Source: Escherichia coli (GTDB taxonomy: Bacteria > Pseudomonadota > Gammaproteobacteria > Enterobacterales > Enterobacteriaceae). Taken from it: a DNA stretch of 64,000 nt. Position 1 is the stretch's first letter; every line of letters starts with the position of its first letter. Of the stretch, positions 11,952 to 63,178 are shown one piece after another. Position numbers and translations under genes: made by a program. The notes under the pieces are model-generated. The model worked only from the letters and a program-made list of their open reading frames with translations. It had not been told where the DNA came from and did no database searches. Location of the stretch: NCBI RefSeq assembly GCF_013315695.1, contig NZ_CP054353.1, one strand, 5' to 3'.

Positions 11952-13805
11952 ATGAGACGATTTCTGACGACGCTGATGATACTCCTGGTCGTGCTGGTGG
12001 CCGGGTTATCTGCGTTAGTGTTGCTGGTGAATCCGAATGATTTCCGCGACTATATGGTCAAGCAAGTTGCTGCACGTAGCGGTTATCAATTGCAGCTCGA
12101 CGGGCCACTGCGTTGGCACGTCTGGCCGCAGCTTAGTATCCTCTCCGGGCGAATGTCTCTCACCGCCCAGGGCGCGAGCCAGCCACTGGTTCGCGCCGAC
12201 AACATGCGTCTGGACGTGGCGCTTTTACCACTACTGAGTCATCAACTGAGCGTTAAGCAGGTGATGCTAAAAGGGGCTGTGATCCAACTGACGCCGCAGA
12301 CGGAAGCGGTGCGCAGTGAAGACGCTCCGGTTGCACCGCGCGACAATACCTTGCCGGATCTGTCAGACGATCGCGGATGGTCGTTTGATATATCCAGTCT
12401 TAAGATGGCGGACAGCGTGCTGGTGTTCCAGCATGAAGATGACGAGCAGGTGACAATCCGCAATATCCGCCTGCAAATGGAACAAGATCCCCAACATCGT
12501 GGCTCATTTGAGTTCTCCGGGCGGGTTAATCGCGATCAGCGCGACCTCACGATATCCCTTAACGGTACGGTAGATGCTTCTGATTATCCGCATGATTTAA
12601 CGGCGGCTATTGAACAAATTAACTGGCAGTTGCAGGGTGCCGATTTACCAAAACAAGGTATTCAGGGGCAGGGGAGTTTCCAGGCCCAGTGGCAGGAGTC
12701 ACATAAACGCCTTTCATTTAACCAAATTAGTTTGACCGCCAATGACAGTACGCTGAGCGGGCAAGCACAGGTCACGTTGACAGAGAAACCGGAATGGCAG
12801 CTGAGACTGCAATTCCCGCAACTGAATCTTGACAACCTCATCCCGCTTAAAGAAACAGCGAACGGTGAAAACGGTGCCGCGCAGCAAGGGCAGAGCCAAT
12901 CCACGTTGCCGCGCCCGGTCATTTCTTCGCGTATTGATGAACCGGCCTATCAGGGATTGCATGGCTTTACGGCTGATATTTTGTTGCAGGCCAGTAACGT
13001 GCGCTGGCGCGGAATGAATTTTACAGACGTTGCCACGCAAATGACCAACAAGTCGGGTTTGCTGGAAATTACTCAACTGCAGGGCAAGCTTAACGGTGGA
13101 CAGGTTTCGCTGCCGGGCACGCTGGACGCGACATCAATAAATCCGCGGATAAACTTCCAGCCACGGCTGGAAAACGTTGAGATTGGTACCATTCTGAAGG
13201 CGTTTAACTATCCGATTTCGTTGACCGGAAAGATGTCACTGGCTGGTGATTTCTCCGGTGCTGACATAGATGCCGACGCATTCCGCCACAACTGGCAAGG
13301 ACAGGCACATGTCGAAATGACCGACACACGCATGGAAGGGATGAACTTCCAGCAGATGATTCAGCAAGCGGTAGAACGTAATGGTGGTGATGTGAAGGCC
13401 GCTGAAAACTTTGATAACGTGACGCGTCTTGACCGCTTTACCACCGATTTGACGTTGAAGGATGGCGTCGTGACGTTAAACGACATGCAAGGTCAATCGC
13501 CAGTGCTGGCGCTGACAGGGGAAGGCATGTTGAATCTGGCAGATCAAACCTGCGACACCCAGTTTGACATTCGTGTGATTGGTGGCTGGAACGGAGAAAG
13601 CAAACTGATTGATTTCCTCAAAGAAACGCCAGTACCGCTGCGGGTTTATGGCAACTGGCAGCAACTCAATTACAGCCTGCAAGTGGATCAGTTACTGCGC
13701 AAACATCTACAGGACGAAGCGAAACGTCGCCTGAATGACTGGGCCGAGCGGAATAAAGATTCCCGCAATGGCAAAGATGTGAAGAAGTTGCTGGAGAAGA
13801 TGTAA
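11952..13805 (+). CDS. asmA: Outer membrane assembly protein AsmA
   Basis: 617-aa ORF with N-terminal signal/anchor (MRRFLTTLMILLVVLVAGLSALVLL), recognised as AsmA. Confidence 0.93.
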   Translation: MRRFLTTLMILLVVLVAGLSALVLLVNPNDFRDYMVKQVAARSGYQLQLDGPLRWHVWPQLSILSGRMSLTAQGASQPLVRADNMRLDVALLPLLSHQLSVKQVMLKGAVIQLTPQTEAVRSEDAPVAPRDNTLPDLSDDRGWSFDISSLKMADSVLVFQHEDDEQVTIRNIRLQMEQDPQHRGSFEFSGRVNRDQRDLTISLNGTVDASDYPHDLTAAIEQINWQLQGADLPKQGIQGQGSFQAQWQESHKRLSFNQISLTANDSTLSGQAQVTLTEKPEWQLRLQFPQLNLDNLIPLKETANGENGAAQQGQSQSTLPRPVISSRIDEPAYQGLHGFTADILLQASNVRWRGMNFTDVATQMTNKSGLLEITQLQGKLNGGQVSLPGTLDATSINPRINFQPRLENVEIGTILKAFNYPISLTGKMSLAGDFSGADIDADAFRHNWQGQAHVEMTDTRMEGMNFQQMIQQAVERNGGDVKAAENFDNVTRLDRFTTDLTLKDGVVTLNDMQGQSPVLALTGEGMLNLADQTCDTQFDIRVIGGWNGESKLIDFLKETPVPLRVYGNWQQLNYSLQVDQLLRKHLQDEAKRRLNDWAERNKDSRNGKDVKKLLEKM

Positions 13806-13815
13806 GACAAGTTAT

Positions 13816-13853
13816 GCAGATGGCGGCGTCAATTTGTCGCCATCTGTATTTAT
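13816..13853 (+). terminator. Putative rho-independent terminator after asmA
   Basis: Hairpin GCAGATGGCG...CGCCATCTG followed by a T-rich run (TATTTAT). Confidence 0.5.
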
Positions 13854-13857
13854 AGCA

Positions 13858-14148
13858 CTAAGCAGCATGTGGATATTGAATTTCAATACGTTGAATATGC
13901 AATCCTGCATGAGCCATCATGGTGATCAATTTATCGATACTAAAGATCTGGATCTTACCTCTGGCAAGTTCAGATATGCGAGGTTGAGTGACCCCTAAAG
14001 CAGACGCTGCCTGAGCCTGGCTAAACCCTTGTTGTTCAATCCAGTTATTAATGATCGTTACAAGTTCGGCACGGATCCGCATATTTTCCGCTTGTTCAGG
14101 GGTGTCACTCACCGCATCCCACACACTATCAAAGGTTTCAATTTTCAT
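13858..14148 (-). CDS. XRE-family helix-turn-helix protein, putative antitoxin (HigA-like)
   Basis: ORF track 13858..14166; probable start is ATG 14148 (MKIETFDSVWDAV...) with AGGAGCGG RBS. HTH-like segment QAQAASALGVTQPRISELARGK. Overlaps the 3' end of the upstream toxin-like gene. Confidence 0.7.
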   Translation of the reverse strand: MKIETFDSVWDAVSDTPEQAENMRIRAELVTIINNWIEQQGFSQAQAASALGVTQPRISELARGKIQIFSIDKLITMMAHAGLHIQRIEIQYPHAA

Positions 14149-14475
14149 TTTTCCGCTCCTGAACAAGTTCTTTATAGCGTCGTTTGTCTAAATCAATATC
14201 CGATTGACTGGTAGTCTGTGTTTTCTTTTGAAAACAATGCAATACGTAAACCGCTTCTTCAAATTTTGCGATATACATGACGCGATAGATCCCATCAGCA
14301 TCGCGAGTACGAATCTCTCGCACACCAGGGCCGATAGTTGAAAAGGTTTCCAGTCGTATGGGTTTAACCCTTGTTGGATCCTGTCGAGTTGATAGCCAAT
14401 TTCCTGTCGAGACGATTCTGGAAATGCGCGTAAATCGTCAAGACTGGTATCAAGAAAAGCCAGCTTTTTTCTCAT
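14138..14475 (-). pseudogene. Gp49/HigB-like (RelE-fold) toxin gene, apparently frameshifted
   Basis: N-terminal part (MRKKLAFLDTSLDDLRAFPESSRQEIGYQLDRIQQGLNPYDWKPF) is in one frame; the rest (TIGPGVREIRTRDADGIYRVMYIAKFEEAVYVLHCFQKKTQ...) is in the -1 frame. The switch is at a T4/C2 homopolymer site near 14341-14346. Confidence 0.65.
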
Positions 14476-14549
14476 TACTCCATCCTTAGATTATACTAAA
14501 TTTTGTATAAATCAAATGCGCAGTTTGAACCTGCGCATTTGATGTTTTA

Positions 14550-16133
14550 TCACACTTCGTACTCCATCTCGCCATCCTTACGTAGCGGAATAATTTGCAC
14601 CTTCTGCACGCGATGGCTTTCCACCTGCAACGTTTTAAGCAAATAATCCCCCACCTGAACTTCTTCGCCAGGTTTTGGAATACGCTGCAAATATTCCATC
14701 AATAGCCCGGCAATGGTGTGATATTCACGTTTTTCATCCAGCGGCAGCGGCACATATTGCACCAGATCCTCCAGCGGCATATGACCATTCGCCGTCCAGG
14801 AACCGTCCGCATTTTTCTGAATATCATGGCGGGCGTCGATCTCTTCCACTTCGTTCGGTAAGTTACCGGCAATGGTTTCAGTGACGTCACTTAATGTCAC
14901 AATTCCTTCCACCGAGCCAAACTCATCCACTACAAAAGCAAAGTGCGTGCGGGCATTACGGAACTGCTCCAGGGCAGGTAACAACGGCAAGGTTTCCGGG
15001 AACACCAGCGGCTGGCGAATCAACACCCGCAGGTTGAGCGGTTCGCCGCGCAGAGACTGTTGTAGCAGGTCGATAACGTGAACAACACCGAGCAAATCTT
15101 CTGCGTCATCACCGTCGGTAACCACCAGCCGCGTATGCTGATTTCGCTCCAGCAACTGGCGGATTTCTTCTTCCGGTGCGTTGAGATCGATATGCTCAAT
15201 ATCGTGGCGCGACGTCATAATGCTGCTGACGGTGCGCTGGTTAAGATTAAGTACCCGCTCAATCATCCGCCGTTCCTGCGGATTAAAGATTTGCTGGTTA
15301 CCATGATCCACCAGCATAGACGCGGTTTCGGCGTCCAGTTCCGCATCTTCTTTTTGCCCGCTAAGCAGGCGCATTACCGCTTCGGTAGTCCGCTGGCGCA
15401 GCGTCTGGTTAGCGGAAAGAAAACGTCGCCGGTTAAAGATAGCCAACTGATTGAGCGCCTCGATCATCACCGAGAAACCAATAGCAGCGTACAGGTAGCC
15501 TTTCGGAATGACGAAGCCGAAACCTTCTGCCACCAGGCTAAAGCCAATCATCAACAGGAAGCTTAAGCAGAGAATAACGATCGTCGGGTGACTGTTAACA
15601 AATTGCGTTAATGGCTTGCTGGCCATCAACATCAGGCTGATAGCGATAACGACGGCGGCCATCATGACCAGTAAATGGTCGACCATCCCGACGGCGGTAA
15701 TCACCGAGTCGAGTGAGAAGATGGCGTCCAGTACCACAATTTGTGTCACCACCCCCCAGAACTTCGCACCTTTGCGTTGTGTGGGGTTATTGCTGTCTTT
15801 CCCCTCCAGCCGTTCGTTCAGCTCCATCGTGGCTTTGAACAGCAGGAAGAAACCACCAAACAGCATGATTAAATCGCGGGCGCTAAAGGTAAACGAGCGG
15901 AAGCTGAACAGCGGTTGAGTCAGGGTGACCAGCCAGGAGATTGACGCCAGCAGTAACAGGCGCATTAACATCGCCAGCAGCAGCCCGGTAACCCGTGCGC
16001 GGTCGCGCTGCTTCGGCGGTAGTTTTTCGGCGAGGATGGCAATAAAGACCAGGTTATCAATGCCGAGGACCAGTTCGATTACAATCAGCGTGATTAACCC
16101 GGCCCAGATAGACGGATCGGCAATCCATTCCAT
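14550..16133 (-). CDS. yegH: TerC-family/CBS-CorC domain inner membrane protein YegH
   Basis: ORF track 14550..16199; trimmed to [13 protein letters not shown]... start (527 aa). Confidence 0.9.
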
Positions 16134-62642: not shown

Positions 62643-62660
62643 TGTACAATGAACTGTACA
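62643..62660 (+). promoter_or_regulatory. yefM-yoeB operator: palindromic TGTACA repeats
   Basis: TGTACAATGAACTGTACA just upstream of the AGAGGAG RBS of yefM. Confidence 0.6.
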
Positions 62661-62675
62661 AAAGAGGAGATTGAC

Positions 62676-62927
62676 ATGCGTACAATTAGCTACAGCGAAG
62701 CGCGTCAGAATTTGTCGGCAACAATGATGAAAGCCGTTGAAGATCATGCCCCGATCCTCATTACTCGTCAGAATGGAGAGGCTTGTGTTCTGATGTCACT
62801 CGAAGAATACAACTCGCTGGAAGAGACGGCTTATCTACTGCGTTCCCCCGCTAACGCCCGGAGATTGATGGACTCAATCGATAGCCTGAAATCAGGCAAA
62901 GGAACGGAAAAGGACATTATTGAGTGA
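62676..62927 (+). CDS. yefM: Type II antitoxin YefM
   Basis: ORF track starts at 62649; trimmed to [64 protein letters not shown]..., 83 aa. Confidence 0.93.
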
Positions 62928-63178
62928 AACTAATCTGGTCTGAGGAATCATGGGATGATTATCTGTACTGGCAGGAAACAGATAAGCGAATTGTTAAAAA
63001 GATCAATGAACTTATCAAAGATACCCGCAGAACACCATTTGAAGGTAAGGGGAAACCAGAACCCCTGAAACATAATTTGTCAGGTTTCTGGTCCCGACGC
63101 ATTACAGAGGATCACCGTCTGGTATACGCGGTTACTGATGATTCACTGCTCATTGCAGCATGTCGTTATCATTATTGA
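62924..63178 (+). CDS. yoeB: Type II toxin YoeB (RelE-fold mRNA interferase)
   Basis: 84-aa [36 protein letters not shown]..., overlapping the yefM stop. Confidence 0.93.

Follow-up and report, generated by a model that had tools for sequence, protein, structure and literature searches.

A one-base frameshift in the Gp49-family toxin gene of a HigBA-like gene pair between asmA and yegH in Escherichia coli

Gene organization of the asmA-yegH region

The window analysed here is a stretch of 64,000 nucleotides of an Escherichia coli chromosome, in which the convergent genes asmA (11952-13805, plus strand) and yegH (14550-16133, minus strand) are separated by a spacer of 744 bp. This spacer holds a minus-strand gene pair (13858-14475) with the toxin gene first, in a type II toxin-antitoxin layout, and the organization is of the HigBA type, i.e., two small, co-oriented and adjacent genes with the toxin upstream and an antitoxin with a DNA-binding domain downstream. 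In the intact allele, the two genes overlap by 11 nt, with the antitoxin ATG located within the 3' end of the toxin gene (ATGAAAATTGA). The pair is directly flanked by asmA and yegH, and prophage context is absent; a search of positions 13500-14900 against Rfam returned no RNA family at E<=1. The features of the spacer are as follows:

13814-13849, no strand: inverted repeat forming a hairpin between the stop codons of the antitoxin gene and asmA, with 12-nt arms that are 92% complementary
13858-14148, minus strand: intact antitoxin gene of the XRE-type HTH class (HTH_37), 96 aa, WP_000687871.1, with matches to PF13744 and HTH_3
14138-14475, minus strand: toxin pseudogene, Gp49/HigB-like, RelE/ParE superfamily, with the frame lost after codon 46 (ORFs 14188-14475 and 14138-14323)
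14156-14159, minus strand: GGAG Shine-Dalgarno of the antitoxin gene, 7 nt upstream of its ATG, as read from the sequence (...CAGGAGCGGAAAAATGAAAATTGA...)
14188-14190, minus strand: premature TAG that ends the shifted frame; the antitoxin ATG follows 40 nt downstream
14341-14344, minus strand: deletion site, with four Ts on the coding strand (T4) where the intact allele has five (T5), placed by alignment with UTI89
14490-14495, minus strand: TATAAT hexamer, a candidate -10 element, ending 14 nt before the toxin ATG
14491-14510, no strand: palindrome TTATAC-N8-GTATAA, an inverted repeat that shares bases with the TATAAT and is a candidate binding site (operator) of the HTH antitoxin
14511-14543, no strand: GC-rich hairpin that immediately follows the stop codon of yegH, an inverted repeat with a 13-pair stem

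The hairpin between the antitoxin and asmA is probably a bidirectional terminator, shared with the end of asmA. For the hairpin next to yegH, a terminator-like call was obtained on the plus strand only, the sequel on the minus strand being GATTTAT; this terminator-like element sets yegH apart from the gene pair. With regard to transcription of the pair itself, the earlier note made from this DNA had read the TATAAT upstream of the toxin gene as a -10 element. The hexamer is indeed present (14495-14490), but a consensus scan called no sigma-70-like promoter on the minus strand and found no acceptable -35 element 16-18 nt upstream of it; furthermore, the leader of a transcript starting from this TATAAT would be about 8 nt long and would lack the best-placed Shine-Dalgarno of the toxin gene (AAGGA, 14487-14483). 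The antitoxin gene keeps its own GGAG, which would allow for translation without coupling to the toxin, and the antitoxin is therefore probably still made.

The window also contains other small toxin genes. An intact yefM-yoeB type II pair, with the antitoxin first and a 4-nt overlap, is located at 62649-63178 (plus strand) and adjoins the his operon; the window thus contains an intact RelE-superfamily module in addition to the decayed one between asmA and yegH. A gene for an Ibs-family type I toxin is located in each of two direct repeats, which are about 250 bp long and 86% identical (repeats 408-653 and 733-988; genes 547-603 and 876-935; ibsA and a paralogue), which is the known sib/ibs arrangement.

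The frameshift in the toxin gene

The N-terminal ORF of the toxin gene (14188-14475, minus strand) encodes MRKK...GLNPYDWKPF and is then out of frame, while the C-terminal part of the toxin (...STIGPGVREIRTRDADGIYRVMYIAKFEEAVYVLHCFQKKTQ...) is encoded in the -1 frame, with its end at 14138; the switch between the two frames occurs at CC-TTTT on the coding strand. A toxin gene split over two frames at a short homopolymer had been proposed from the sequence, and the ORFs, their coordinates and an alignment with UTI89 confirm it: the single difference in 372 columns is one missing T, which turns T5 into T4. The intact allele encodes the 112-aa protein WP_001227699.1 (found in UTI89, S88, and ATCC 11775), and the conceptually repaired toxin of the window, also 112 aa, is identical to this protein. 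Since an intact orthologous allele exists and the frame-breaking change from T5 to T4 is the sole difference from it, the gene is a frameshift pseudogene. When the whole 744-bp islet is compared with the intact ST95 allele, again only the missing T differs (matches at 99.9%). The lesion is already known to annotation, as PGAP calls the gene frameshifted; the label given in the genomes AF3 and MSB1_4I is 'type II toxin-antitoxin system RelE/ParE family toxin, frameshifted'.

Protein families and predicted structure

The repaired toxin matches the Pfam family Gp49 (PF05973) with an E value of 3.3e-28 over the full length of the model (1-90 of 90; residues 13-102 of the protein). Because this match runs from end to end, both fragments belong to one domain, in agreement with the earlier proposal that they derive from a single toxin of one family. 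The antitoxin matches HTH_37 (PF13744; E 4.9e-22, model positions 2-76 of 80) as well as HTH_3 (E 5e-7), and its nearest solved structure is 2A6C (E 3e-14); it is intact, as had been claimed, and identical to the partner of the intact toxins. Scores against NCBIfam models fell below the curated cut-offs, both for the toxin (23.3 bits against TIGR02683, the upstrm_HI1419 toxin; cut-off 62.85) and for the antitoxin (16.3 bits against TIGR02607, the HigA antitoxin equivalog; cut-off 47.7), and the pair was thus assigned to Pfam families only and not to equivalogs. A total of 6707 homologues of the toxin were found at E<=1e-5, including proteins from Salmonella, Erwinia, Pantoea, Photorhabdus, and Yersinia; among the matches listed, all toxin homologues carry PF05973 and many are named RelE/ParE toxin. 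Relatives of the toxin are also present on 575 plasmid records. In a cluster look-up, the 112-aa toxin and the 96-aa antitoxin, which are unrelated proteins, were placed in one 705-member '90% identity' cluster; an artefact of clustering or labelling is the probable reason, and it may stem from a read-through or fused gene call.

A search of the PDB with the toxin sequence gave just a marginal match to HigB (E 0.095). An AlphaFold model of the repaired toxin, built with 41 homologues (pLDDT 92.1, pTM 0.83), contains strand 4-7, helices 11-16 and 20-34, strands 42-44, 52-58, 64-71, and 75-84, and helix 91-111. As modelled, the protein would thus have the RelE/ParE (BECR) fold, with N-terminal helices on an antiparallel beta-sheet, and all of its top fold matches in the PDB are toxins of the RelE/ParE superfamily, namely HigB1 (7NBU), Streptococcus pneumoniae HigB, Vibrio cholerae HigB2, RelE, YafQ, and ParE2. 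Together with the Pfam assignments, these matches bear out the original reading of the pair as a Gp49/HigB-like toxin with a RelE fold placed upstream of an XRE-family HTH protein.

What remains of the toxin before the frame break after residue 46 are two short strands (the first one and that at 42-44) and both N-terminal helices. The strands at 52-58, 64-71, and 75-84, which are three of the five beta-strands predicted in the model, are lost together with the C-terminal helix. Among the 41 homologues, 21 residues are invariant, and 13 of these fall after the frameshift (G49, G51, E54, R56, R65, Y68, H80, C81, F82, K84, T89, D93, and R100). Given the loss of these strands, of the C-terminal helix and of 13 invariant residues, the frameshifted toxin is almost certainly inactive.

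Evidence that the deletion is genuine

Of 791 complete E. coli genomes with coverage of the site, two carry T4 (AF3 and MSB1_4I) and the other 789 carry T5. AF3 is from a UK blood culture and MSB1_4I from an Australian rectal swab; both carry the O1 antigen cluster, and both have a 7-bp ACGAATC expansion that frameshifts dgcE. The window differs by 1 SNP from AF3, which also has an IS1 in wcaM that is absent from the window, and by 6 SNPs and zero indels over 64 kb from MSB1_4I; as it is distinct from both genomes, one and the same clone has been sampled at least three times. The IS1A that splits wcaM (about 38726) in AF3 is absent from MSB1_4I as well and provides a marker separating isolates of the clone. 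When compared over 16.5 kb with S88 and ATCC 11775, the window shows ten SNPs and two tandem-repeat expansions in dgcE, of 6 bp and 7 bp, and the only 1-nt indel is the T deletion in the toxin gene; as no other homopolymer indel occurs in these 16.5 kb, the assembly is not error-ridden. Finally, the exact 95-aa frameshift product is encoded on 973 contigs in NCBI, JGI/IMG, ENA, and Logan; these include contigs of E. coli KTE69 and KTE143 (2013-era drafts) and a metagenome scaffold that shares 6288 bp with the window at 100% identity.

These data bear on whether the missing T could be a homopolymer sequencing or assembly error, with the toxin gene truly intact. Such an error would be consistent with the position of the lesion at a homopolymer and with the presence of T4 in just two complete genomes, at least one of which may be a long-read assembly. 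However, a run of four or five Ts is short for systematic long-read error, the indel stands alone in the comparison with S88, and the T4 genomes are mutually closest relatives with a common, unrelated expansion in dgcE. The sharing of the lesion within a clone, combined with the recovery of its exact product from four independent sources, makes a sequencing artefact very unlikely; we give this explanation next to no weight and dismiss it. The earlier note had named an extra base at the homopolymer in the reads as the sign of an intact gene, and this proviso effectively fails in view of the same independent contigs.

The dgcE gene (diguanylate cyclase; 6968-10298, minus strand) is also a pseudogene in this clone, where frame is lost through a 7-bp unit: ACGAATC is present in three copies in the region 8795-8822, versus two in S88 and ATCC 11775. 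An in-frame 6-bp duplication of CTTCTC (8528-8533) lies 280 bp from this repeat. Among the matches listed, full-length exact matches to the three-copy allele were those in AF3 and MSB1_4I; the allele was also found, over query positions 2-96, in one unrelated O111:H8 strain. The T4 allele and the 7-bp dgcE expansion together may be useful as a marker for the clone.

A genuine deletion might still be bypassed during expression, through -1 slippage of tRNA-Phe on CCU-UUU-C or through slippage in the T run, which would yield a low, tuned level of full-length toxin by recoding or phase variation. While a -1 slip from UUU to UUU would, judging from the sequence, re-pair perfectly and restore the exact wild-type ...KPFSTIG..., the site does not fit the X XXY YYZ pattern of a slippery heptamer (the base preceding CCU is A), and the Rfam search of the region found no RNA family or structure signal. 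A run of 4 nt is, in addition, far under the lengths associated with phase variation, and the in-frame T5 is the ancestral and overwhelmingly common state. We thus regard bypass of the frameshift as highly improbable.

Population distribution and other lesions at the locus

The gene pair is a common accessory locus, present in 910 of the 5426 complete E. coli genomes (about 17%, or one sixth), including ST95-type strains, UTI89, and O157:H7. It is absent from K-12 MG1655, which has an unrelated REP-like spacer of 273 bp at this position. The comparison of the asmA-yegH region across genomes that the earlier note had called for, which gave these counts as well as those of T5 at the deletion site, thus supports its view that K-12 lacks the pair and shows its suggestion of a strain-specific insertion to be overstated. 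One record labelled 'E. coli strain DH5alpha' (NZ_CP026085.1; 4.83 Mb) carries the pair that MG1655 lacks; the label may be wrong, or the strain may not derive from K-12.

For the 6.5-kb neighbourhood of the pair, 165 genomes are at least 99% identical to the window, and among the matches listed at this level all but AF3 and MSB1_4I show a match length that is 1 nt longer, i.e., T5. The existence of these near-identical T5 relatives indicates that the deletion is recent and confined to a sub-clone. Loss of the toxin gene by pseudogenization in this clone is thus both real and recent, and, because the lesion is recent, the intact antitoxin of this clone says nothing about selection.

Independent lesions that affect only the toxin gene were found in other lineages, including (i) a 23-bp deletion between two CTCGACAGGA repeats (AR202.2 and MSB1_8G), (ii) an IS1 insertion (ECONIH4), and (iii) loss of the 5' half of the gene beside an IS110-family element (O157:H16 strain 98-3133 and roughly 118 genomes). 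The antitoxin gene is annotated as intact in the records inspected (98-3133 and AR202.2). These three further lesions support a general pattern at the locus in which the toxin is lost first and the antitoxin is kept. The decay path of a domesticated module, which had been put forward for the window, therefore stands as far as the order of loss is concerned, but the lesion in the window is too recent to show selection.

The asmA-yegH spacer is also a rearrangement hotspot. In 98-3133, an IS110-family transposase and K-12-like sequence abut the 5'-truncated toxin gene, and in WB61 a K-12-type spacer is fused to the final 104 bp of the antitoxin region, with the 3' end of yegH lost. The K-12-type REP-like spacer, the WB61 hybrid and the IS110-associated form together suggest repeated rearrangement.

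Discussion

We consider it highly probable that the locus is best explained as a chromosomal type II module of the Gp49 (HigB-like)/HTH_37 (HigA-like) kind, the toxin of which was killed by a genuine deletion of one T. In the intact state, the 112-aa toxin with its RelE/ParE fold would cleave mRNA on the ribosome, and the 96-aa HTH protein would neutralise the toxin and act as a repressor of the operon, with the palindrome overlapping the TATAAT as its probable binding site. In the clone represented by the window, which has the O1 antigen and is ST95-like, deletion of a T from the T5 run has shifted the frame after residue 46 and left a toxin that is almost certainly dead, while the antitoxin gene, untouched and provided with its own ribosome-binding site, would persist as an orphan regulator.

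While the lesion and its authenticity, the family membership, the predicted fold and the population distribution are shown by the data, the functional steps of this model, from RNase activity of the toxin and its neutralisation to autoregulation and ongoing antitoxin expression, are what we infer from homology and sequence features. A 2025 survey of the RelE/ParE superfamily (PMC11980606) lists the gp49 family with about 22,000 entries, ribosome-dependent mRNA degradation as its activity and the gene order T/A; by analogy with this listing, and with the ribosome-bound HigB1 that the model resembles, the intact toxin would be a ribosome-dependent mRNA endonuclease. Literature searches by the protein accessions and by asmA/yegH combined with toxin-antitoxin found no experiment on this pair, and the paper by Norton and Mulvey on toxin-antitoxin systems of uropathogenic E. 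coli does not mention the locus; toxicity and neutralisation hence rest on family membership.

The same literature result is compatible with a different view, in which the pair does not function as a toxin-antitoxin system even when intact and consists of a phage-derived Gp49-like protein and a Cro-like regulator that have stayed behind in the chromosome, without toxicity. In PHROG, the toxin best matches a family of no known function (phrog_2523, E 7e-35) and its partner matches phage HTH families, and PADLOC returned only marginal matches (NsnC, E 0.003; PDC-M64C, E 7e-5 for the HTH protein), on which we base no claim of a defence system. Against a phage origin of this kind, however, asmA and yegH directly flank the pair, and against a lack of toxicity, catalytic-type residues (R56, R65, Y68, H80, and K84) are invariant in the 41 homologues, down to 53% identity, and the predicted fold is like that of HigB1 bound to the ribosome. 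In addition, the same toxin-first architecture of these two families is treated as a toxin-antitoxin module in PMC11980606 and in the relevant passage of PMC7157771, and repeated toxin-only lesions with the antitoxin kept would be expected if an unpartnered toxin were harmful. We therefore judge a pair without toxin-antitoxin function to be improbable and retain the module with a frameshifted toxin as the preferred explanation.

A further question is whether toxin loss at this locus has been recurrently selected for, with the HTH antitoxin kept for a job of its own. The finding of at least four independent types of toxin-only lesions, combined with the presence of related toxins on plasmid records, is the basis for this idea, which we regard as unlikely, if less so than the absence of any toxin-antitoxin function. 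If it were true, the orphan antitoxin might, for example, confer immunity (anti-addiction) against related plasmid-borne Gp49 modules or regulate other genes. The locus may thus offer a natural series for asking whether selection keeps orphan antitoxins. In itself, it shows, in a clean and verified case, how a chromosomal module of an extraintestinal-pathogenic E. coli clone decays by losing its toxin first; beyond correct annotation its significance is small.

Comparison with known systems

A survey of phylogroup B2 reported that toxin repertoires are reduced and orphan antitoxins abundant in ST95 and other lineages of this phylogroup (PMC10790755). Neither this locus nor its lesion is described in that survey; the locus provides one concrete example of the pattern.

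Among solved structures, the best match to the modelled toxin is Mycobacterium tuberculosis HigB1 (Rv1955, of the TAC system; 7NBU and 7AWK), with E 5e-4, TMq 0.67, and 20% identity. The TAC system is tripartite and includes a SecB-like chaperone. The pair in the window differs from TAC in that sequence identity between the toxins is low and no third gene accompanies the pair. HigB1 is nevertheless among the names given for the gp49 family, for which ribosome-dependent mRNA degradation is listed (PMC11980606). By toxin sequence, the closest PDB entry is HigBA of S. pneumoniae (6AF3 and 6AF4; E 0.095), which is also a fold match and whose antitoxin chain weakly matches the antitoxin of the window (E 0.24); this similarity is merely marginal, and the organism is Gram-positive.

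HigBA of E. coli K-12 (YgjN-YgjM) and HigB2-HigA2 of V. cholerae are likewise toxin-first pairs with a toxin of the RelE/ParE (BECR) fold and an HTH antitoxin, and V. cholerae HigB2 is a fold match to the model of the repaired toxin (TMq about 0.6). By contrast with the pair described here, their toxins belong to other Pfam families (PF09907 and PF06296, the latter for V. cholerae HigB2; PMC11980606), and they are located at other loci.

The pair is thus a module of a known kind, as the toxin-first pairing of Gp49 and HTH_37 is a described type of toxin-antitoxin system in the passage of PMC7157771 that deals with Tn3-family transposons. The modules of Tn4662a, TnDsu1, and Tn5501.12 described there consist of the same two Pfam families, with the toxin upstream and a similarly small size; they adjoin the res site of the transposon, whereas the pair in the window lies between core genes without transposition genes. 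According to the same passage, which does not give the toxin family in this case, Tn5501.5 carries a truncated toxin gene next to an intact antitoxin gene.
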